DNA of 64,000 nt from Verrucomicrobiota bacterium (GTDB lineage Bacteria > Verrucomicrobiota > Verrucomicrobiia > Limisphaerales > AAA164-E04). The stretch covers positions 5,952,001 to 6,016,000 of the forward strand of contig CP170459.1 of NCBI GenBank assembly GCA_047947115.1, written 5' to 3'. A model generated the notes under the pieces. That model was not told the DNA's origin. It saw nothing but the letters and a program-made list of their open reading frames with translations, and searched no databases. Position numbers and translations under genes: made by a program. Below are positions 44,743 to 55,508 of this stretch, piece after piece; position 1 is the stretch's first letter; every line of letters begins with the position of its first letter.

Positions 44743-46305
44743 TCAATCCGGCGATGCTAATGCACCGGTTGGGCATGAATCGACGGCATCTTTTGCCAAA
44801 TTTCCTAAACCAGCTTCCAGGTTTTTTTCCAAAGAAACGCCTGCGGTCACCTCAAACCCACGTCCCACAAAGGTGAATCCATATTTCTCACCACCATCCT
44901 GCGTTACTCGAACGCAAATCCCACATTTGACACACTTACCGGGCTCATAAACAGCCACGGTACTTTGGTCCATTTTGTTGAATGAGGGCCGATCGTTGAC
45001 TTTGAATTGCATTTGCTTGGCACCGTATTCGTGGCTGTATTCACGCAAACTGCAATCTTTGTTAGCGCGACAGTCACAATGCAAGCAACGACCACTCTCC
45101 TCGTCGGCTTGTTCGGGTGTGATGTCTTTTTCTTTGGCCGCCCGAATCTCCGGGTGAGCATGAGGCGCCGCATGCTTGACGAACAGATCCAGCTCACCTT
45201 CCTGGAGCCTCCCCATCATGTGGTTGTAAATGTCCTCTTCTCCTTGCATGGGTTGCTCCCTCAAACATTGATCCACACAGGCAGCCATTGATTTGGCATT
45301 TTGAATGACTTTCAGAAGGTTCATTTCCGCATTAGCAACCCCACCGCCTGCAAACACGGCTTGTATATTGGTCATATGAGTCTTTCGGTCCGCCTTGACC
45401 CCTTTCTTGGCCAATTCCAGATTCCAGGCTTCAAGTGACTGAGCTGCAGACTCTCCACAAGCGATTACGACCGCATCGAAATGCTCCTTTATTTCCTGGA
45501 ACGCGTCCGCGGTATCAACCCCATGTTTTGTCCGAAATTCCACCCCCATGTTGTTGAGTAAAGAGATTTCCCCATCCAAAGCCCAATCCGGTATTGTCCC
45601 GTTTGTCACTTCTTCCTGAATGGATCCCCCTAATTTATCAGCCTTATCCAGGACCACGCATTGATGCCCCCGCAAGGTCAGGTAATAAGCCGATGCCAGA
45701 CCCGTGGGGCCTCCACCAATGATGCAGACTTTTTTGCCCGTTGGCTCAGCACAAGGTATGGCGTATGCCTTTCCTTCGCGCAAGTGCCAATCAGCAACGT
45801 GACGCGACATGTGTTGAATGGCAATTGGATCATCATGCAATCCGCGGCGACATCCTTTTTCGCAGGGCGCATGGCACATTCGCTCAAGAATACTTGCAAG
45901 CGCCACGTCAGATCGAACGGTCAGGACGGCATCTTCCATCCGGTTGTCACCCACTTCTCTCAACATCTTTGGAATTTCCGAATGCACGGCGCAAAGACGT
46001 TGGCACGGGGCTTCACAATCTCCCACATGCTCACTGAGCAAAAGTTCCAGAGTTGATTTACGGAATTCCCGGATGCTTTCGGCCTGTGTTTCGATATCCA
46101 TTCCATCAGCTACTTTGGCAGAACACGCAGGCATGGTCCTTCCAGACGCATTGTCTTTCACCACACAAATCATACAAGAGGTGAAATATTCGTGGCCTTC
46201 CTTATAGCAGAGTACGGGGATCTCGATCCCAACTTTGGCTGCAGCCTGAATGATGGTTAAATCCTCGTCCGTTTCGATTTCCTGGTTATCGATTTTAAAT
46301 TTCAT
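44743..46305 (-). CDS. NuoG/HydA-like Fe-S subunit with an inserted, shortened GltD-like flavoprotein domain
   Basis: [2Fe-2S] C-x10-C-x2-C-x13-C; EHVGDCEAPC..C; CHAPCEKGC; IIGGGPTG; RCLHCDC-x5-C; CVKCGIC...CPTGAL. Confidence 0.85.
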   Translation of the reverse strand: MKFKIDNQEIETDEDLTIIQAAAKVGIEIPVLCYKEGHEYFTSCMICVVKDNASGRTMPACSAKVADGMDIETQAESIREFRKSTLELLLSEHVGDCEAPCQRLCAVHSEIPKMLREVGDNRMEDAVLTVRSDVALASILERMCHAPCEKGCRRGLHDDPIAIQHMSRHVADWHLREGKAYAIPCAEPTGKKVCIIGGGPTGLASAYYLTLRGHQCVVLDKADKLGGSIQEEVTNGTIPDWALDGEISLLNNMGVEFRTKHGVDTADAFQEIKEHFDAVVIACGESAAQSLEAWNLELAKKGVKADRKTHMTNIQAVFAGGGVANAEMNLLKVIQNAKSMAACVDQCLREQPMQGEEDIYNHMMGRLQEGELDLFVKHAAPHAHPEIRAAKEKDITPEQADEESGRCLHCDCRANKDCSLREYSHEYGAKQMQFKVNDRPSFNKMDQSTVAVYEPGKCVKCGICVRVTQDGGEKYGFTFVGRGFEVTAGVSLEKNLEAGLGNLAKDAVDSCPTGALASPD

Positions 46306-48707
46306 AGGTCGATGACATGAATGGCGTCAACAGGACACACCTGAAGACAGATATCGCATCGGGTACACGCCGGCTCTTCAATAAGGTGCCGATGATACGG
46401 GTTCATGGGGATGGCATCCACGGGACAGTGCTGAGCACAGCGCGTGCATCCGATACACGATTCATTGATGTAATACTGGGTGAGTTTCGTGCATTTTTTT
46501 GCCGGGCATCGGCCTTGCAAGTGGGCTTCGTATTCATCCCGGTAATATTTCAAACTGGAAAGAACAGGATTTGGGGCCGTTTTGCCCAGACCACACAAGC
46601 TGCCATCCACAGTGATCCCTGCGAGTGCCTCGAGTGTTTCAAGATCCCCTTTCCGACCGCCCCCTTCGCAGAGTCGGTCGAGGATCTCCTTCATGCGTTT
46701 AGTGCCTACGCGGCAATGGGTGCATTTACCACAGGATTCATCCTGGGTGAACTCCATGAAATATCTCGCAATATCCACCATGCAGTCGGTTTCATCCAGC
46801 ACCACCATCCCCCCTGACCCCATGATGGCCCCTACGGACCGCAAAGCTTCGTAGTCGACAGGTGTGTGGCATAGATTGGCGGGAACACAACCTCCCGAAG
46901 GCCCGCCCATCAGCACAGCCTTGAGCTTGCGTCCATTTGGAACACCTCCCCCGATATCGTTGACGATTTCGCTGATAGACATGCCCATCGGCACTTCCAC
47001 CAAACCGCCCCGGTTGATCTTACCTGCCAATGCAAAGGTTTTAGTTCCTTTACATTTTTCGGTGCCCCGCACAGAGAATGCTTTGGCACCGTTGCGCATT
47101 AGCCAAGGAATGGTGGCGAGTGTTTCCACATTATTGATGAGTGTGGGCTTGCCCCACAAACCGGACTGAGCGGGGAACGGGGGTCTGAATCTCGGCATTC
47201 CCCTTCCTCCCTCAATGGCAGAAATCATGGCGGTTTCTTCACCGCAAACAAAGGCTCCCGCACCTTCGATTACACGCATTTTAAGGCTTAAAGAACTTCC
47301 GAAAATATTCTCTCCCAGGTAGCCCTTTTCCTCACAAATCTTGATGGCATGACGAATGCGTTCTGTAGCCAGGGGATACTCCGCCCGGATGTAGAATATT
47401 CCCTCATTAGCTCCGATGGCATGAGCGGCTATCGCCATTCCTTCAATAACTCGGTAAGGGAAGGATTCCAGGATCATACGGTCCATGAATGCGCCGGGGT
47501 CCCCTTCGTCGCCATTACAAATGACGTATTTCTTATCACCTGTCGCCGCCCGGGTGAATTTCCACTTTAATCCGGTGGAAAAACCAGCCCCCCCCCTGCC
47601 TCGTAGCCCGCTGGTTTCAATTTCCTTGATGACTTCCTCTGAATCTTCTTTTTCCAGAACGGACTTTAGGGCTTTGAACCCGTCATGAGCCTCGTATTCG
47701 TCGAAACTGGTCGGATTCAATTCCCCCAAATGCTCGGTGACCAAGTGGAATTGAGCTTTGGATCGATCCGCCTCGGCTCCGTGCCGTACATCGTCCGCAT
47801 AACGTGTCGGGGGAGCCCATGCTTCATCCGTAAAAAACTTTTCAAGCCACCCCATCACTCTGGCTCCGGCCTGTTTCAAAAGCCCTGCAGACCGAAAATG
47901 ACTGAGCAGAATTTCGCCCGCCTGATCCGCTTTAACCTTACCGTAACGGTATTTTCGATCCCGGTAAACAACCACCTCCACCAAAGGGGTTTCGTATGAC
48001 AAACCGGTACACCCCACTTGTTTGATACTCACTGGCAGGGCGTTCGAACGGATGGACTGCTTCAACGAGTCATACACCTTGTCGGTCCCACCTGCCACGC
48101 AACTGGAGCACAAACAAATACGCACTTCGCCTGTTGCCTGCTCTATTTTGACACCGTCGTCGTCATTAATATCGGACTGCTTCTTGGTAAGAGCTTTGAA
48201 ATCCTTGATAAGATCGGGCACTTTCCAGGGCTCCACATCGCCATAAATGACATCATCAATCTGCACCACCGGGGCCAACATGCAGCACCCCAAACAGGCC
48301 ACTTTTTCGGCTGTAAACTCGTTCTTAGGGTCAGTATGGCCTTTGGCCGGAATTTTCAATTCTGTTCGAAAGGTTTCATCCAAGATATTGGCACCACTGA
48401 CATGGCAAGCTGTCCCGACGCATGTCTTGACGATATGTTTGCCCACCGGGTAATGCCTGAACTGGGAATAGAAAGTGGACACACCAGTGACGGCGTCCGG
48501 AGTAATTTCCGAGACTTCACAAAGTCTTTCCAGAGCCGGTTTAGGAAGGTAGTTCCATTTCTTTTGAATGGCCTGCAGCAAAGGGATCAGGTGCTCGGGT
48601 TGATCTCCGATTTCCTTGACCCATTGATCCACCAAGGTGAGATCAATCTGTGGCGTGGTCGAGATGTCGACCGGCTTGGTCTGAGGATCTTGAACTAAAG
48701 TTTCCAT
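46302..48707 (-). CDS. fused NuoE-NuoF (HydC-HydB/BfuC-BfuB-like) NAD(H)-binding FMN/Fe-S protein
   Basis: CVGTAC...CLGCC; CLCSSC...GCTG; GLRGRGGAGF; NGDEGDPGAFMDR; GAGAFVCGEETA; GGPSGG; ESCGKCTHCR...SLCGLG; H-x4-C-x4-C; two C-terminal CxxCxxCxxxCP. Confidence 0.92.
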   Translation of the reverse strand: METLVQDPQTKPVDISTTPQIDLTLVDQWVKEIGDQPEHLIPLLQAIQKKWNYLPKPALERLCEVSEITPDAVTGVSTFYSQFRHYPVGKHIVKTCVGTACHVSGANILDETFRTELKIPAKGHTDPKNEFTAEKVACLGCCMLAPVVQIDDVIYGDVEPWKVPDLIKDFKALTKKQSDINDDDGVKIEQATGEVRICLCSSCVAGGTDKVYDSLKQSIRSNALPVSIKQVGCTGLSYETPLVEVVVYRDRKYRYGKVKADQAGEILLSHFRSAGLLKQAGARVMGWLEKFFTDEAWAPPTRYADDVRHGAEADRSKAQFHLVTEHLGELNPTSFDEYEAHDGFKALKSVLEKEDSEEVIKEIETSGLRGRGGAGFSTGLKWKFTRAATGDKKYVICNGDEGDPGAFMDRMILESFPYRVIEGMAIAAHAIGANEGIFYIRAEYPLATERIRHAIKICEEKGYLGENIFGSSLSLKMRVIEGAGAFVCGEETAMISAIEGGRGMPRFRPPFPAQSGLWGKPTLINNVETLATIPWLMRNGAKAFSVRGTEKCKGTKTFALAGKINRGGLVEVPMGMSISEIVNDIGGGVPNGRKLKAVLMGGPSGGCVPANLCHTPVDYEALRSVGAIMGSGGMVVLDETDCMVDIARYFMEFTQDESCGKCTHCRVGTKRMKEILDRLCEGGGRKGDLETLEALAGITVDGSLCGLGKTAPNPVLSSLKYYRDEYEAHLQGRCPAKKCTKLTQYYINESCIGCTRCAQHCPVDAIPMNPYHRHLIEEPACTRCDICLQVCPVDAIHVIDL

Positions 48708-48709
48708 AG

Positions 48710-50470
48710 TTAACCCTGAATACAGAATAAGTGGGATTCGCCTCGGACGATCATCCCGTTTTTAAATAAGGCCGGGGTACTCAAAACAGGCTCTCCCATG
48801 AAAGAATCCATGTTGCCTTTGAATGCTTCTCCCGTCGTTTCGAACACATGTGCGTAGCCGCCTCGATCGAACAGATACACCTTCTGCCCAATCCTCACCG
48901 GAGAAGAATAAAAACCGTGATCGGTCACCTCATACCACATCTCTTCCCCGTTATCGGCGTTCAGGCAGACGATTCCACCGTCACCCATCCCACCGAAATA
49001 CAAATTGTTGTGAACGATAGGAGAGGATATTCCGGGAGTGGTATCGCGATTCGACCAAAGCACCTCCTGAGTGGAAATATCAACAGCAGCAACATGCACG
49101 TAGTCAGCGGCAATATACAGGCGGCCATTGGCATAGTAGGGCGAAGGAGCAATTTCGCCTCCTTCCAGACACTCAATTTCCCAGATAAGCGCCCCATCAT
49201 CAACATTGTACAACGACAAGGTAGGTTCGGATGCCAGGGCCATAACGGACTTTCCTTCCCATTCGAATAATAGAGGAGAAGCCCAGGAAGCACCGTTGGT
49301 GCGATCCTTTTTCCAGCGCTCCTTGCCGGTGGCAGCATCATACGCAGCAACAAAACTGTGCTCTTCACGGTCCAACTGGATCAACACCAGATCACCATAG
49401 ACCTGAGGAGACGATGAATAACCGTAAGGATTGACCGGATTCCCCATGTGCACCGTCCACTTGAGTTCACCGTCCAACGTCACACCAGCAAGATCTCCAT
49501 TGGCGTATACGGCATAAACCATTGCACCATTACATGCCAATGTTGGGGCAGCGTAACCAGTATCCTCGGTAACTTCAGGAGGTTCCCCGGATTCTTTAGT
49601 GGTTGGGACTCCAGTTCGCCAAAGCTGTTTACCATCCTCCAAAGTGAAGCAAGCCACTTCACGTTTTTCTTCGTCAGCGCCGGTAAGGAATATTTTATCC
49701 TCCCAGATGATAGGAGAATTGAAGCCGACAAGGTCCAATTCGACTTTCCAGTGAATGCCATCCCCGGTTTCCCCATTCCAGGATTCAGGAAGTTGGACTT
49801 CATCCATCCAAGCATCATATCTTCCCAGGAATACCGCCCAATTCTGTCGGATCTGTTCGGAAGTGGCGAATTGGATGGAAGGAGCGGCGGGGGTTTGATC
49901 CGCAAATTCGGTTTCGCTGCTGGCGAGTGACGGGGGGCCATCCAGTTCTGCGTTTTCGGAAGGCACGGGCTCATCCAATGGACTTTTCCAAGGCAAGGCC
50001 AAGGACAAGGCGAACCCTGCCAGACAAAGCCCGGTGACGGTCACGGATTTTCTTGCCCACCTTGCCTGCTCGCGTGGATCATCCTTGGGATCACTTGAAT
50101 CGGGAAAGGGATGGTTAGCCTCATATGCTTCGATCAATTTGAAGCAAGCGAGCATCACCGCAAGACTGCCAACCAGCAGGTAGATCCCACGGTGATTGAA
50201 TTCCTGACTGGCAAAGAAAGCCTTGCGACCCAGTTGGTCCATTTGCTGGATCTGTAAGCGTAACTCCTCATTGCGTGGATCCTGATTCAACTGCTCAATC
50301 AAAGCTTCCAGTGAAGCGGAATGGACGGGGTCGGAACGATTCAGCATCGCCCGGTTTGCGATCATCAGCACACAGGTCACCACAGCCAATACGGCGGAAA
50401 CCCATCCTAATATTTTGATTATCTTATATGCTGCTGAATTTCGGTCCTTCTCAAGAACAACCACTCTCAT
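48710..50470 (-). CDS. multi-TM-anchored PQQ-like beta-propeller protein
   Basis: Three N-terminal hydrophobic helices, then repeats such as SPIIWEDKIF, SSPQVYGD, ASPLL, G-x-x-x-W. Confidence 0.8.
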   Translation of the reverse strand: MRVVVLEKDRNSAAYKIIKILGWVSAVLAVVTCVLMIANRAMLNRSDPVHSASLEALIEQLNQDPRNEELRLQIQQMDQLGRKAFFASQEFNHRGIYLLVGSLAVMLACFKLIEAYEANHPFPDSSDPKDDPREQARWARKSVTVTGLCLAGFALSLALPWKSPLDEPVPSENAELDGPPSLASSETEFADQTPAAPSIQFATSEQIRQNWAVFLGRYDAWMDEVQLPESWNGETGDGIHWKVELDLVGFNSPIIWEDKIFLTGADEEKREVACFTLEDGKQLWRTGVPTTKESGEPPEVTEDTGYAAPTLACNGAMVYAVYANGDLAGVTLDGELKWTVHMGNPVNPYGYSSSPQVYGDLVLIQLDREEHSFVAAYDAATGKERWKKDRTNGASWASPLLFEWEGKSVMALASEPTLSLYNVDDGALIWEIECLEGGEIAPSPYYANGRLYIAADYVHVAAVDISTQEVLWSNRDTTPGISSPIVHNNLYFGGMGDGGIVCLNADNGEEMWYEVTDHGFYSSPVRIGQKVYLFDRGGYAHVFETTGEAFKGNMDSFMGEPVLSTPALFKNGMIVRGESHLFCIQG

Positions 50471-51870
50471 GACATCGTAACCTTTTCTTTCTTCCCAGAT
50501 TTTTCAGCCGGTGCCTGCGGTTGCATCAAAATTGCCTGAGAAGCTTCAAAGGCCGGAGTCCCCGGCACAAAATTTGGCCTGTGCATATCATCACTCGGGC
50601 AATAAGAACAACAGCGACCGCAGCTGTAGCAATCTGATTTGCGCACCTCATAGCCTACCTGGGTTCGTGATAAGGAGACATTGATCAGTTTCACCCCAAA
50701 AACCAAGCCAATAAAACCGCCAAGCAACCAACCGCCCGTGCTCATCTGTGAACGAATCTGTGCTGCTTTGCTGAACAAGTCCTCTTCAGTCTGACCTTTA
50801 GCTCGAAAAGTGTCCGACTCTATCGTTGTTGGCATATTAGAATCCTGCTTTTCCAGAACAATCTGTTCGGCCAAAGCAACCGTGCGGTGCTGCCTGCTCA
50901 AGGGTTCGGCCATACGGTAACCGATCCAACCACAAAGCAGAATCAACACAGGCACCATTACAAACAGGTAACCGAGACGATGGGCACCCGAATGGCGATC
51001 TTCCTTGGTCAAGCCGGCGTTGGGCTTGTCAATGGCGTCGAACGGACAGGATTCTTCGCACAAACGGCAGTCAATGCACACAGTTGGCGTGATGGATAAA
51101 TGCCACCTTGCGAAGCGAGACATCCAGCCCAGCAACACCCCGTAAGGACAGAAAAAGCGACAATATGGACGTGCTACGAACATTCCTACCAGAAGAAACC
51201 CGGCCCCCAGATAAAGGTAAGGAGCATGACCATTGAGACGGAAGAAACCAATGAAAGGGTCGTATTTACAAATCGCCATGCCGGCGTTGGTAGCCGAAAG
51301 TAGCACAGCGGTCCCCAAATAGATATAGGGAATCATGCTCAATCCGGTCGTCACTTTCTTGGGCAACTGAATGGGTTTGAGCACGACAAGATCCTGAATT
51401 GCCCCGAGGGCGCAGACCGATGCACAAAAAACACGTCCGAAGAAGAGTGAATAGGCAAGCGGCAGCAGGAAGAAAATCATCACTGTCACCGGAATGGCAT
51501 AGTGCACATTAAAAATGGACATGGTCACATTCTGAATCGATCCGATCGGGCAGACACAACCTTGCTTGTAGAACCCAAAATACCCCAAACTAAACAGCAT
51601 CAACCAGAAAAGGCCTTTCCGCGTTCTTAATTTGATAGCGAACAGGGCTCCGAGACTCAAAGTTGTAGCGAGCACCAGAACATCCACCCATTGCTGCCAC
51701 TCCTGAGTCGGTTCTGGGATCGTGGTTTCAGGGAATGTATATTCACTGACAAACTCCGGAGCTGGAAAGCGCATTTCGCCAGCTTGAGAAGACTCAGGCC
51801 ATCCCAAGTATACTCCGAGCAGGAGGACAGCAGCAAAAATCGCGTTCTTTTTGAGTAAGGAAAAAATCAT
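50467..51870 (-). CDS. integral-membrane 4Fe-4S protein (NapH/RdxA/NosR-C-terminal-like)
   Basis: CVCPIG, GRVFCASVCALG, RPYCRFFCPYG, CIDCRLCEESCP, CYSCGRCCSYCP; multiple TM helices. Confidence 0.85.
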   Translation of the reverse strand: MIFSLLKKNAIFAAVLLLGVYLGWPESSQAGEMRFPAPEFVSEYTFPETTIPEPTQEWQQWVDVLVLATTLSLGALFAIKLRTRKGLFWLMLFSLGYFGFYKQGCVCPIGSIQNVTMSIFNVHYAIPVTVMIFFLLPLAYSLFFGRVFCASVCALGAIQDLVVLKPIQLPKKVTTGLSMIPYIYLGTAVLLSATNAGMAICKYDPFIGFFRLNGHAPYLYLGAGFLLVGMFVARPYCRFFCPYGVLLGWMSRFARWHLSITPTVCIDCRLCEESCPFDAIDKPNAGLTKEDRHSGAHRLGYLFVMVPVLILLCGWIGYRMAEPLSRQHRTVALAEQIVLEKQDSNMPTTIESDTFRAKGQTEEDLFSKAAQIRSQMSTGGWLLGGFIGLVFGVKLINVSLSRTQVGYEVRKSDCYSCGRCCSYCPSDDMHRPNFVPGTPAFEASQAILMQPQAPAEKSGKKEKVTMS

Positions 51871-51891: not shown

Positions 51892-52506
51892 TTACTCAGG
51901 GAGGTTGAACACATCTTCCATGGTTTCCTCGCGTTCTTTGTGCCTCAGCAGATAGGGTTTATCGGCCGGCAACCGCTCCCAGGCATCGGCCGGACACTGC
52001 ATGGCAATGGAACATTCATTGCAGTTCACACAGACGTTATGTCTGACCTGCAGGTAGAAGGAGGCATTCCCGAACATCTCGCAGGCTTTGACACATTTGG
52101 CGCAGCCGATGCAGTAATCTTCCAGAATGTTGTATTCCCAATAGGGATCTTCTACAAAAAGTCGTTCAATGGCGCCGGTGGGACACAGTTGATTTTCGGC
52201 GGCCGAGGTCAATTCAGGGGCGTTAGGGAGGAAATATCCAAAACACAAACGGCAGTAACCACAGATGGGATAAGACTGAACACACTTAACGGCGGATGGA
52301 GAAACGACACAATCGGTCGCGCAATGCTCACACTGAACGCACTTGTCAGGGTCAATCTGCCAAACCGTATTTTGTTCGCGCGCCCCAAATACGGACATGC
52401 CCCCCATCCAGCCAAGCGTTAATGCGGCACCTCTGCCGACAGCTTGTTTGATAAAATCAAAGCGATTTAATTGGTCCGACGATTCATTCGATTTTGCATC
52501 AGCCAT
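51892..52506 (-). CDS. multi-cluster 4Fe-4S ferredoxin with a Tat-like leader
   Basis: NRFDFIK plus hydrophobic stretch; CVQCEHCATDC, CGYCRLC, CPTGAI, CIGCAKCVKAC, CVNCNEC..CP. Confidence 0.85.
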   Translation of the reverse strand: MADAKSNESSDQLNRFDFIKQAVGRGAALTLGWMGGMSVFGAREQNTVWQIDPDKCVQCEHCATDCVVSPSAVKCVQSYPICGYCRLCFGYFLPNAPELTSAAENQLCPTGAIERLFVEDPYWEYNILEDYCIGCAKCVKACEMFGNASFYLQVRHNVCVNCNECSIAMQCPADAWERLPADKPYLLRHKEREETMEDVFNLPE

Positions 52507-52521
52507 AGTTTTTACTCCGTA

Positions 52522-54015
52522 TTATTGATTCAGTGTCAGATTGTTCGATCCCCCGGAAGCACCCGTACTCATATCCAGGCAAATCAGCATTTTGGAATCC
52601 CGCAAGATGAGTTTCCCCTCGACAATAGCCATGGGAGCCCAAGCGTCATGGCCGGGAGCCACTTCCGCGAACCCAAGTTTTTGAAAACCATCCAGACTGG
52701 CCTTGGCCATGGTCAATTCACCGTTGTCGTTGAGAATGTAAACTTTGTCATCAGCGATCATGTAAGGACCCAAACCGAATCGCTCGGTTTTGCCGCTGCT
52801 CCATACAACATTTCCCTCAAGATCCATGCAGACGAACTGGCCACGCATGGCTCCAGCGTCTTTGGGAAGAATGGAGAACAGATGGTTTTGGTAGAAAATG
52901 GGAGTCTGCTGTTCGCATGCAAATATCGTTTTATCCAGCTTGAATAGCGGCTTGGGAATGATCTTCCCCCCATCTTCCTTGAAGCCCATCATCATACTCC
53001 CCCCGCCATAACCGGCGGTAAAGAATACCTTGTCAGGCGCAACCCCGATAGGAGATGGCGACAACACATTTTGCGCCCAGTCCGAAGATTTCCAAAGGAG
53101 TTCACCCTTGGTGTCCGGCTCGGCAGATACGCCGACAACACCATTTTGTGAGCAGTAAACGTAGGTTTGCTTACCAAGAATCTCCATCTTCATGATGGAA
53201 GAGTGGGACATTTTCCATTGATCCTCATTGGTGGTGGTCCAATTGACCGCACCCGTCGCCAGATCCACGCCCATCATCATCGTGGTGCCGGAAGGTGCCA
53301 CAATGGCCTCATCTCCATCAATCAGAGGACACTGCCCCGTATACCATAGTGGAACGCTGGTTCCGTAATCCTTCACGAGGTCCAATCCCCAGACAAAATC
53401 ACCCGTCTTCGCCCGCACACACATGACAAAACAACGCGGCCCCATGGTGACCACGTAATCCTTGGTCAAAGCAGGAACCGTTCTTGAAACACCGTGATTA
53501 TTCTTGGTAGGGGCTTTGTAACGGCGTCGCCAGATCTCGATGCCGGTGTCCAGTGAGAAACACCTAAGAGTATCCCCTTGATATTCCTTATCGTAGTCCA
53601 GAATATAAACACAGCCCTGATCAACCGCCACACCTGCGTGCCCTTCGCCCATGGGAACGCTCCACAACTGAGTAGGACCTCCGGGAGGCCAGGTTTCAGA
53701 TAAGGGAACGGAGTCCTTGGCGATGTTATCAGCATCAGCTCCTCGAAATCCTTTCCATGTGCCTGCGGATGTGCCAAATTCACCTTCAAGCTTTTCAAAC
53801 TCACCCTCCAGATCCACGACAACTTCCGCCTTGGGCGCCGCTGCGACACCACCTACCGGCTTGTAAGTTCCGGCTGCGGTTTCCGCGGGAATATCGGTCA
53901 CGCGTGTTGTGATAGGAAGAGAGTTGCCCCCTTGAAACAGGAGGTACAAGAAACCCGCCGCAACCCCCGTTAAAAGGGTCATGGCATAAAAAGTCAGTTG
54001 TCGATCAGTAACCAT
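52522..54015 (-). CDS. membrane-anchored PQQ-like beta-propeller protein
   Basis: N-terminal TM helix; WKGFRG family motif; repeated G-x-x-x-W blades. Confidence 0.85.
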   Translation of the reverse strand: MVTDRQLTFYAMTLLTGVAAGFLYLLFQGGNSLPITTRVTDIPAETAAGTYKPVGGVAAAPKAEVVVDLEGEFEKLEGEFGTSAGTWKGFRGADADNIAKDSVPLSETWPPGGPTQLWSVPMGEGHAGVAVDQGCVYILDYDKEYQGDTLRCFSLDTGIEIWRRRYKAPTKNNHGVSRTVPALTKDYVVTMGPRCFVMCVRAKTGDFVWGLDLVKDYGTSVPLWYTGQCPLIDGDEAIVAPSGTTMMMGVDLATGAVNWTTTNEDQWKMSHSSIMKMEILGKQTYVYCSQNGVVGVSAEPDTKGELLWKSSDWAQNVLSPSPIGVAPDKVFFTAGYGGGSMMMGFKEDGGKIIPKPLFKLDKTIFACEQQTPIFYQNHLFSILPKDAGAMRGQFVCMDLEGNVVWSSGKTERFGLGPYMIADDKVYILNDNGELTMAKASLDGFQKLGFAEVAPGHDAWAPMAIVEGKLILRDSKMLICLDMSTGASGGSNNLTLNQ

Positions 54016-54170: not shown

Positions 54171-55220
54171 ATGGCCGATATTAAATCACTAGCTCGACGG
54201 GGTTTTCTTTCGGGAGCACTTGTAACCGCAGGAGCAGCAGTAGGATGGATGTTCCGTAAATCTCAGAACCCACGACGTCCGGCACGGCAGAATCAAAGCC
54301 TCGACAAGAGTATTTTTGAGTATGACGTGAGCGAATACATGCAAACCGATCCGGATTTGCACATGTATGAAGCCGGGAAGGAATTCAAAGTGGACTTTGA
54401 GCGGGTCAAATCGGTGCTCATGACCGACGATGGCGCACTGATCGTGGCAGGCGACCGTAGCATTAAAGGAGTTGGCCGAGATGGAACGACCCAGTTCGAA
54501 CTCCCCCTCAGTCGTCCTCCCCACTGCATGGCCATCACGGAGCAGGGTCTCCTATGGGTTGGGTTGGGGCGATACTGTGAAGCTTACGATTTAAAAACGC
54601 TCGATAAGAGATTTAAAACCGACCAGTTGGGTGAAAAGTCTTACATCACCTCCATGCAGGCTTACGAGGACAGGGTTTATGTAGCGGACGCCGGACTTCG
54701 AGAAATGGTGGTATTGAAAGCTGAGTCGGGAGAGGAACTGTTTCGATTTGGTAAAAAGACGGAAACCAATCCCGGTTTCAATGTTCCAAGCCCTTACTTT
54801 GATTTTGTTATTGGCAGGGACTTGAAACTGCATATTTCCAATCCCGGACTCCTTCGTGTGGAGACCTACACACTGAATGGTACATTCGAAAGCAGCTGGG
54901 GCAAACCCGGCATGAAGGCGGATGCGTTTTGTGGATGCTGTAATCCGGTTTACCTAACACAACTCACCAACGGGGATTTTGTCACCAGTGAAAAAGGCCT
55001 GGCCAGACTGCATGTCTATTCCGAACAAGGGGAATTCAAAGGCGTGGTGGCTGATCCGAACCACATGATACCTGATGAAGCTCTAGCAAAGAAAGCTTGC
55101 GGGGATTGCACCAAAGGCCACGGTTTTGACCTTGCTTCGGATGAATCCGGCAATGTGTTCGTGCTCGACCCCATCCAACAGAGCATTCGGGTTTTTGAAC
55201 CCTCACCCAAATTGACTTAA
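54171..55220 (+). CDS. Tat-signal NHL-like beta-propeller protein with an FCGCCNP motif
   Basis: ARRGFL plus hydrophobic helix; VYVADAG, FVTSEKG and VFVLD blades; FCGCCNP and CGDC. Confidence 0.7.
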   Translation: MADIKSLARRGFLSGALVTAGAAVGWMFRKSQNPRRPARQNQSLDKSIFEYDVSEYMQTDPDLHMYEAGKEFKVDFERVKSVLMTDDGALIVAGDRSIKGVGRDGTTQFELPLSRPPHCMAITEQGLLWVGLGRYCEAYDLKTLDKRFKTDQLGEKSYITSMQAYEDRVYVADAGLREMVVLKAESGEELFRFGKKTETNPGFNVPSPYFDFVIGRDLKLHISNPGLLRVETYTLNGTFESSWGKPGMKADAFCGCCNPVYLTQLTNGDFVTSEKGLARLHVYSEQGEFKGVVADPNHMIPDEALAKKACGDCTKGHGFDLASDESGNVFVLDPIQQSIRVFEPSPKLT

Positions 55221-55250: not shown

Positions 55251-55508
55251 ATGAGCGAAAACCAATCAAAAGCAGAAAACAGTCTCCCAAGACGCCAGTG
55301 GATAGCCAAGGCGGCTCGATCGGTCATCGTGACCGCCATGGCTGCATTCGGCCTTGGACAGGTTTACAAAGCGAGAAAACTGGCAAACGACCCTAATTGC
55401 GTGCGGCTCTACACCTGCAATGACTGTATCGAGTATGGCGGCTGCGAACTGGATAAGGCGGTCGCATTCCGAAAGACGCAGGATAAGCCGGCATCAAACA
55501 ACAGCTGA
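55251..55508 (+). CDS. small Tat-like-leader protein with a four-Cys motif
   Basis: PRRQWI plus hydrophobic helix; C-x5-C-x2-C-x5-C (CVRLYTCNDCIEYGGC). Confidence 0.7.
   Translation: MSENQSKAENSLPRRQWIAKAARSVIVTAMAAFGLGQVYKARKLANDPNCVRLYTCNDCIEYGGCELDKAVAFRKTQDKPASNNS

Follow-up and report, generated by a model that had tools for sequence, protein, structure and literature searches.

What kind of enzyme is built around the 801-residue chain encoded at 46302..48707, and to what does it pass its electrons? The chain is read from the minus strand of a 64,000-nucleotide stretch of a Verrucomicrobiota bacterium genome (assembly GCA_047947115.1, contig CP170459.1, positions 5,952,001 to 6,016,000), hereafter the window, and joins BfuC and BfuB in a single open frame. 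Bfu enzymes are known from anaerobes, with soluble third substrates or in predicted proton-pumping complexes; the host here is an aerobic marine member of the Verrucomicrobiota. Our reading, to which we give a probability of about 0.55, is that the chain forms the fused core of a Bfu enzyme of Nfn descent, in which the A subunit has lost its NADPH site, and that this enzyme is likely to be the cytoplasmic terminus of an electron conduit through the membrane. The fusion is ordinary within its lineage and a minor point of the finding. The interesting part is the empty A subunit together with the membrane conduit, both of which lie outside the gene picked out by an earlier sequence-only reading of the window.

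The fused BfuC-BfuB chain

The chain begins with a BfuC/NuoE domain (residues 27-170, 48198..48629, minus strand like all parts of the fusion; Pfam PF01257) that carries the C1 [2Fe-2S] ligands C96, C101, C138, and C142. The B5 thioredoxin-like domain follows (residues 195-272, 47892..48125), a segment that matches the N-terminal B5 domain of NfnB and has Cys at 198, 200, 203, and 233 plus Ser237, a predicted structural metal site. The FMN/NAD(H) domain (Complex1_51K, residues 363-534, 47106..47621) contains AFM at 406-408, F486, and E491, the NAD-selective position; the roles of its residues were taken from PMC7311640 and PMC12018979. Next come an SLBB domain (557-606), with GGPSG at 601-605, and an NADH_4Fe-4S domain (645-729). 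The B1 [4Fe-4S] ligands C659, C662, C665, and C705 and the B2 site C642, (C680), H729, C734, and C739 lie at 46491..46784, and the chain ends in a B3/B4 2x[4Fe-4S] tail predicted to dock ferredoxin (residues 746-797, 46317..46472; Pfam 4Fe-4S dicluster, 749-797).

The fusion was aligned with 120 homologues from databases and 16 from genome loci, the most divergent of them about 50% identical. C1, AFM, F486, E491, GGPSG, B1, the B2 set, and B3/B4 were nearly invariant across the 136 sequences. The C1 ligands were invariant in every aligned homologue spanning that region, and C642, H729, C734, and C739 of the B2 set, whose ligands map to A. mobile HydB C438/C476/H525/C531/C536 (PMC9304861), were kept in 119-120 of the 120 database homologues and in all 16 genome-locus homologues. 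The sequence-only reading had described an N-terminal NuoE [2Fe-2S] domain fused to a complete B chain with an FMN/NADH site, a 4Fe-4S cluster, an extra C...H-x4-C-x4-C site, a 2x[4Fe-4S] tail, and the GAFM and GGPSG signatures; Pfam, the NfnB match, and the alignment bear out this description throughout. The chain thus holds the FMN/NADH, SLBB, B1, and C-terminal 2x[4Fe-4S] elements of a BfuB, the C1 [2Fe-2S] of a BfuC, and the A/E-x-M, Phe, and GGPSG signatures by which BfuABC is recognized (PMC7311640).

Since C1 and B1 ligands stand on one chain in 134 of the 136 homologues, and the C-B junction is crossed, with no listed insertion or deletion, by contigs of three independent RNA runs (X1, X3, X10), the fusion is not an assembly artefact.

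The B5 site was said to be altered, with an extra Cys in CLCSSC and no last Cys in GCTGLS. The motifs are as described; the alteration, in our view, is a compensated one. Among 137 sequences, 111 had Cys at 198, 200, 203, and 233 and 23 had Cys at 202, 203, 233, and 237, while one had five Cys and two had a single one. These patterns point to a rearranged site that retains four Cys in either of two exclusive arrangements. Two NfnABC enzymes bifurcate although their B5 is a Zn without redox activity (PMC12018979, PMC11829005), so the rearrangement is no argument against the family mechanism.

Placement within the Bfu family

The core was compared with known chains after removal of the tail and the N-terminal domains. 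The NfnB chains scored highest (608 bits for C. saccharolyticus, 597 for S. ovata, 587 for T. sibiricus), followed by HydB chains (553-486), a tungsten-enzyme B chain (460), FdsB, the formate dehydrogenase beta chain (396-355), Nqo1 (379), and other NuoF chains (about 335-323). The C domain ranked NfnC first among PDB chains, with 127 bits. A FastTree phylogeny of 40 sequences over residues 330-728, in which reference proteins were identified from the genes next to them and which contained no characterised NfnB, grouped the fused proteins with unfused NfnB-like proteins of the same phylum (support 0.997), apart from NuoF and FdsB.

With NfnB scoring highest, the NuoF equivalog model giving 460 against a cut-off of 559, and a full nuo operon encoded separately in the host genome, the fusion is not part of complex I, as the sequence-only reading had held. 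The host also has a formate dehydrogenase-like module; the host's NuoF and FdhB have TFK and Tyr at the signature positions and lack the B2 His, as non-bifurcating proteins do. On model score, on the TFK/Tyr positions, and on nuo operon context, the fusion did not behave as NuoEF. The name HydC-HydB, under which it was introduced, fits the fused C-B core and is less apt for its affiliation: NfnB is closest, the A subunit has no H-cluster domain, and there is no NiFe subunit gene in the operon, so that neither an FeFe- nor an NiFe-Bfu hydrogenase was found. Judged from sequence, BfuC-BfuB of the Nfn/Stn branch is the better name, and no hydrogenase, formate, or NADPH site was recognized in the enzyme.

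One cyanobacterial HoxF has AFM and GGPSG and no B2 His. The bifurcation of HoxEFUYH reported in a 2026 preprint (10.64898/2026.06.25.734504) fits the idea that the motifs are predictive.

By every testable sequence criterion of PMC9304861, the protein is a Bfu member and not an Nfn-Bfu. Its type is absent from the Bfu types listed in the part of that paper available to us; the unassigned clades 1-17 may contain members of it. A literature search, which covered few subscription papers, found no description of the module or of a bifurcating-type BfuC-BfuB fusion, and the module is not described in the accessible parts of PMC11406978 and PMC12324291.

The short BfuA partner

The next gene downstream, which overlaps the fusion in an ATGA, encodes a short, NfnA-like BfuA of 520 residues (44743..46305, minus strand). 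It keeps the ligands of A1, A2, A3, A6, and A7 and an FAD-type GxGxxG, and is without the NADP(H) domain, A4, and the C-terminal NuoG/Fdh-like domain. The A1 ligands are C33, C44, C47, and C61, and those of A2 are H93 with C410, C412, and C418, which supplies the adjacent BfuA expected of a BfuABC. By sequence the protein matches NfnA in two pieces; the top four Foldseek rows for its AlphaFold model (pLDDT 76) were all NfnA/StnC, and its match to HydA was confined to residues 1-104.

The NADP(H) domain is missing from the homologues too. The corresponding segment has 38 residues in the window protein, 16-40 in 120 of 120 database homologues, and 0-39 in all 20 phylum loci, where contig ends truncate some of the sequences, as against 176-186 in seven full-length NfnA-like controls. 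The controls carry a second glycine motif that the window BfuA lacks; an eighth intended control (L027) proved to have a short A and was dropped. One exception was seen at the level of the host's order, where L123 has 81 residues instead of about 38.

The residues around the flavin have changed as well. All 120 BfuA homologues have a substitution at the FAD-binding Asp and 117 of them have one at the A7 Lys, and the equivalent of NfnA Arg234 is not conserved. In the window protein Ser167 stands at the Lys170/Lys165 position and Glu141 is gained, so that the Nfn-Bfu ligand is absent. Glu141 occurs with a residue other than Lys, His, or Glu at 167 in 118 sequences, while 31 sequences have Lys, His, or Glu at 167 and no Glu141, with no exceptions; this swap suggests that the position of the fourth A7 ligand has moved to Glu141. 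All 120 homologues retain the first GxGxxG, and with it the acidic ADP-binding residue.

Among relatives that share this operon, A forms a series of decreasing length: 520 residues, about 445 (L048-L050, L058), and about 307 without the FAD domain (L070). In seven loci (L066:10260-13232, L067, L068, L071, L072, L074, L078), C, B, and A form single chains in frames of 976-1040 residues, with a minimal A part of about 200 residues that has the ligands of A1, A2, and A3 only. These chains are candidates for the smallest complete Bfu enzyme. Since the NADP domain is deleted and relatives are reduced to A1, A2, and A3, the A subunit would thus be a wire with no recognizable catalytic site.

This bears on the simplest account of the locus, an ordinary soluble NfnABC/Stn transhydrogenase of NADPH, NAD, and ferredoxin in which B and C happen to be fused. 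In sequence and in fold, both subunits indeed match NfnABC/Stn best. However, the NADP domain and the second glycine motif are deleted, the A7 Lys, the Arg234 equivalent, and the FAD Asp are not conserved, and the canonical NfnABC-like operons of the same phylum are unfused and have no membrane genes. We consider this account very improbable.

The membrane module

Upstream of the fusion, on the same strand, four genes precede it. Nearest is a membrane-anchored PQQ-like beta-propeller of 586 residues with three hydrophobic segments (48710..50470), then a NapH/NosR-like polytopic membrane Fe-S protein of 467 residues (50467..51870), a 4x[4Fe-4S]-type polyferredoxin of 204 residues with 17 near-invariant Cys (51892..52506), and a single-anchor PQQ-like beta-propeller of 497 residues with invariant His, Tyr, Gln, and Cys positions (52522..54015). 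On the plus strand there follow an NHL-type propeller of 349 residues with a twin-arginine-type leader (54171..55220) and an 85-residue protein with such a leader and a C-terminal motif of four Cys (55251..55508). The NHL gene is divergent here and co-oriented in most relatives, and its adjacent Cys256-Cys257 pair is invariant (37/37). The 85-residue protein adjoins the module in close relatives only (L001, L121, L122).

The NapH-like protein has 15 near-invariant Cys: two CX3C(P)-type motifs, a 2x[4Fe-4S] set, and C105, C107, and C201. Such motifs in NapH and NosR have been described as necessary for passing electrons to periplasmic reductases (PMC5928378). At the family level the pair is not NapGH, as the NapH model TIGR02163 gave 40 bits against a cut-off of 213 and the polyferredoxin matched no NapG model. 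Its architecture is of the NapGH type, with membrane helices, CX3CP motifs, a dicluster, and a polyferredoxin whose export is predicted from a leader motif that is of the twin-arginine type in 39 of 49 family members and divergent in the window copy. A structural model of the NapH-like protein (pLDDT 81) had no Foldseek match at E <=0.001, and a second fold comparison gave helical-hairpin matches only, at Z <=6.7; these results speak neither for nor against a novel fold. The host genome (G000) also has a separate NapG/MauM-like polyferredoxin with a twin-arginine-type leader (G000:C1:3948668-3949300).

Gene order is conserved. CB precedes A in 16 of the 20 phylum stretches fetched around A matches, 14 of these with membrane-module genes upstream, and in the host's order the sequence polyferredoxin, membrane protein, propeller, CB, and A was found in 18 of 20 stretches, the other two being short contigs. 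A search for recurrent extra neighbours returned antisense frames only, and no catalytic partner gene recurs in the operon.

That last result concerns a different wiring, in which the low-potential B3/B4 arm contacts the membrane wire in place of soluble ferredoxin, and A serves a partner encoded elsewhere or, at the exposed flavin/A7 site, a small molecule. In its favour are the glycine motif and acidic residue kept in all 120 homologues, the apparent conservation of the A7 fourth ligand by the 141/167 swap, and a host with no clear soluble ferredoxin. We hold it to be improbable, given that FAD, A6, and A7 are gone in seven C-B-A fusions with an intact operon and that no partner gene accompanies the operon.

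The stretch is contained in 20 RNA runs from 20 studies (aquatic, estuary, seawater, marsh). In four runs from four studies, long contigs cover about 44.7-56.4 kb, with a break near 54.0-54.2 kb (the divergent intergenic region), and thin out beyond about 56.9 kb, covering most flanking genes much less; this is a weak hint that the operon is transcribed. A promoter scan of the window did not rise above shuffled sequences (3 vs 10.2). The module is followed immediately downstream, on its own strand, by a complete rRNA operon (16S, two tRNAs, 23S, 5S) at 39017-44084.

Distribution of the module

Two genome sets were analyzed, 301 genomes of the phylum and 141 of the host's order. The fused CB was present in 34 of the 301, and 32 of these 34 had the polyferredoxin, both misses being short contigs. 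A polyferredoxin with no fused CB match occurred in four phylum genomes, three of them from one family (f30). None of the seven control genomes picked for full-length NfnA had a polyferredoxin orthologue. Among 38 chosen genomes of the order, it was present in 17 of 17 CB-positive genomes, in 3 of 14 that were CB-negative and terpenoid-positive, and in none of seven negative for both CB and the terpenoid synthase; G385, with a probable unfused BfuB, was excluded from the order-level CB count. The f30 loci have the membrane module and propellers, two of them beside SHC-like genes, and there another electron source must serve or CB was missed.

A search of genomes for related loci gave one locus, 95% identical. 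By source name, homologues outside the Verrucomicrobiota come from Poribacteria and Lentisphaerae. One genome (G387; L114, L115) has two tandem fused BfuCB genes, 55% and 66% identical to the window protein, with a third match on another contig.

The SHC-like terpenoid cluster

Some loci place the module near an orphan terpenoid cluster composed of a radical SAM protein, a DUF116-polyprenyl synthase, a small prenyltransferase-fold protein, a DxDD cyclase, GT4, and an FtsX-type ABC exporter. The cyclase, assigned by description to the SHC-like clade of PVC bacteria, for which the accessible parts of PMC12324236 and PMC7306690 list no known substrate, product, or function, shares a retrieved stretch with the module in 12 of 40 loci at phylum level and in 1 of 20 at order level. 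Beside the module it mostly stands with the synthase and radical SAM genes, often also with the small prenyltransferase-fold protein and FtsX-type ABC genes, and a GT4 gene flanks the module in other phylum loci. Redox genes in an SHC-like genomic context may already stand in a supplementary figure of PMC7306690.

The module could then be the reductant supply of this pathway, with a reductive step on the outer face of the membrane, an idea compatible with our reading of the enzyme. In the 301 phylum genomes the synthase was present in 31 of 34 with the fused CB and in 5 of 267 others; polyferredoxin and synthase overlapped in 34 of 36 each, also within patchy families, and cyclase and polyferredoxin in 32 of 36, counts that include kin and are not independent. 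In the host's order, by contrast, 12 of 24 CB genomes had the synthase vs 79 of 141 overall (Fisher p 0.65), which is no association; DUF116 was missing from five of five near-complete module carriers tested, and genomes of the host's genus and family have terpenoid genes and no module match. An obligate role in the pathway was rejected on the order-level counts and the DUF116 absence. The link looks ancestral and facultative, and supply of this pathway as the module's function is possible yet doubtful.

The host genome holds all the terpenoid genes, scattered over contig C1: the SHC-like cyclase, with DxDD kept (520546-522459), radical SAM and DUF116-polyprenyl synthase (3622620-3625851), the small prenyltransferase-fold protein (4607452-4608486), an FtsX-type ABC pair (2183824-2187878), and a propeller with a GT4 that has an N-terminal CxxC (4920084-4922612). 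A canonical squalene-hopene cyclase lies at 2798704-2800692.

Host physiology

The 6.08-Mb host genome has three haem-copper oxidase matches, complex I, an Rnf operon, two PFOR-like enzymes, and one OGOR-like enzyme. The Rnf operon (G000:C1:4697842-4708002, L108) contains a 1640-residue PFOR-like gene between rnfB and rnfC. Two small Fer2 proteins are encoded in the genome.

An aerobic host with no obvious small ferredoxin suits a non-bifurcating version of the same conduit, a simple NADH dehydrogenase module whose electrons go to the membrane wire or the quinone pool and whose Bfu signatures are inherited. The characterised C-B fusion of this general kind, S. aciditrophicus HydB, is non-bifurcating (PMC7311640). 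Against this, the B2-B4 ligands, AFM, F486, and GGPSG are nearly invariant in the 136 homologues while A has been heavily cut, and non-bifurcating homologues are without these residues (PMC9304861), as the host's own NuoF and FdhB illustrate. We regard this version as unlikely.

Proposed electron path and comparison with known systems

In the mechanism that we propose, NAD(H) would react at FMN and a ferredoxin-level carrier at B3/B4, the two being coupled at B1-FMN-C1, as family knowledge indicates. By the anatomy of the complex, the merged mid-potential electrons would run through B1-A1-A2-A3 to the cytoplasmic dicluster of the NapH-like protein; the A1-A2-A3 path is proposed because only these A clusters are kept in the smallest relatives. 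From the dicluster they would pass to the exported polyferredoxin and on to a periplasmic propeller, the best candidate being the NHL protein with its adjacent cysteines. Bfu enzymes are reversible; the outward direction is the most likely one, in which NADH and a carrier reduced by PFOR, OGOR, or Rnf would provide the envelope with a strong reductant. That the enzyme bifurcates, that the complex forms, and that it runs in this direction are what we infer here.

Several observations weigh against this mechanism. The bifurcation signature motifs are correlative, and the fused clade alone was supported at 0.58 only, or 0.90 without one long branch, in a tree with no characterised NfnB. NapH-type proteins have been described as quinol dehydrogenases (PMC5928378), and the quinone pool might connect the two halves. 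Three f30 genomes (L064, L069, L079) have the membrane half and no fused CB orthologue, while in two genomes (L043, L044) CB-A stands apart from the membrane half, which weakens the case for a physical association. RNA-run contigs are no proof of transcription. By its three haem-copper oxidase matches the host is an aerobe, and motif and Pfam scans of its genome turned up neither a small 2x[4Fe-4S] ferredoxin nor a free flavodoxin.

Among known systems, NfnABC/StnABC (C. saccharolyticus 9bov, S. ovata 8oh5, T. sibiricus 9n5u) are the best match for the B core, the C domain, and the N-terminal half of A, and share the GltD-like insert within the A2 motif, the NAD-selective Glu, and, in T. sibiricus, the missing A4. 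They differ in that here B and C are fused, A has no NADP(H) and NuoG/Fdh-like domains, the A7 Lys is replaced, and membrane and exported Fe-S genes are present. HydABC (T. maritima, A. woodii, T. kivui, A. mobile) has the same BfuBC cofactors and signatures, with a five-ligand B2 as in A. mobile HydB, whereas the window system has no H-cluster or NiFe subunit and a core closer to NfnB, as the bit scores above show. The predicted membrane-bound Nuo-Bfu and Mbh-Bfu (PMC9304861) likewise have a BfuABC with a non-catalytic A that feeds a membrane partner, but that partner is made of antiporter-like proton-pumping subunits and not of a NapGH-like pair with propellers. With NapGH, NosR, and RdhC the module shares the CX3CP-type motifs, the C-terminal 2x[4Fe-4S], and a twin-arginine-type polyferredoxin partner; it differs in weak similarity, three extra near-invariant Cys, and a Bfu partner in place of a nitrate or N2O reductase. 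S. aciditrophicus HydB has its NuoE-like domain N-terminal to the flavin subunit in the same way, and is without the bifurcation-type residues that the window fusion keeps together with the B2-B4 sites and a rearranged B5.

Tentatively, these features may define a new Bfu class in aerobic marine bacteria, whose third partner would be a haem-free Fe-S wire, which would carry NADH and ferredoxin-level electrons to periplasmic reductions, originally those of the SHC-like pathway, and which would include a one-chain C-B-A form of less than 1000 residues. The link to the SHC-like cyclase offers a testable, not obligatory, end use. Which A clusters can be dispensed with is apparent from the naturally occurring deletion series. 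The single-chain C-B-A proteins offer a compact system for testing the FMN-bicluster mechanism and, if our reading is true, would be the simplest bifurcase. A Bfu core wired to exported Fe-S proteins in an aerobic marine bacterium would, if confirmed, broaden the family in physiology as well as in architecture.

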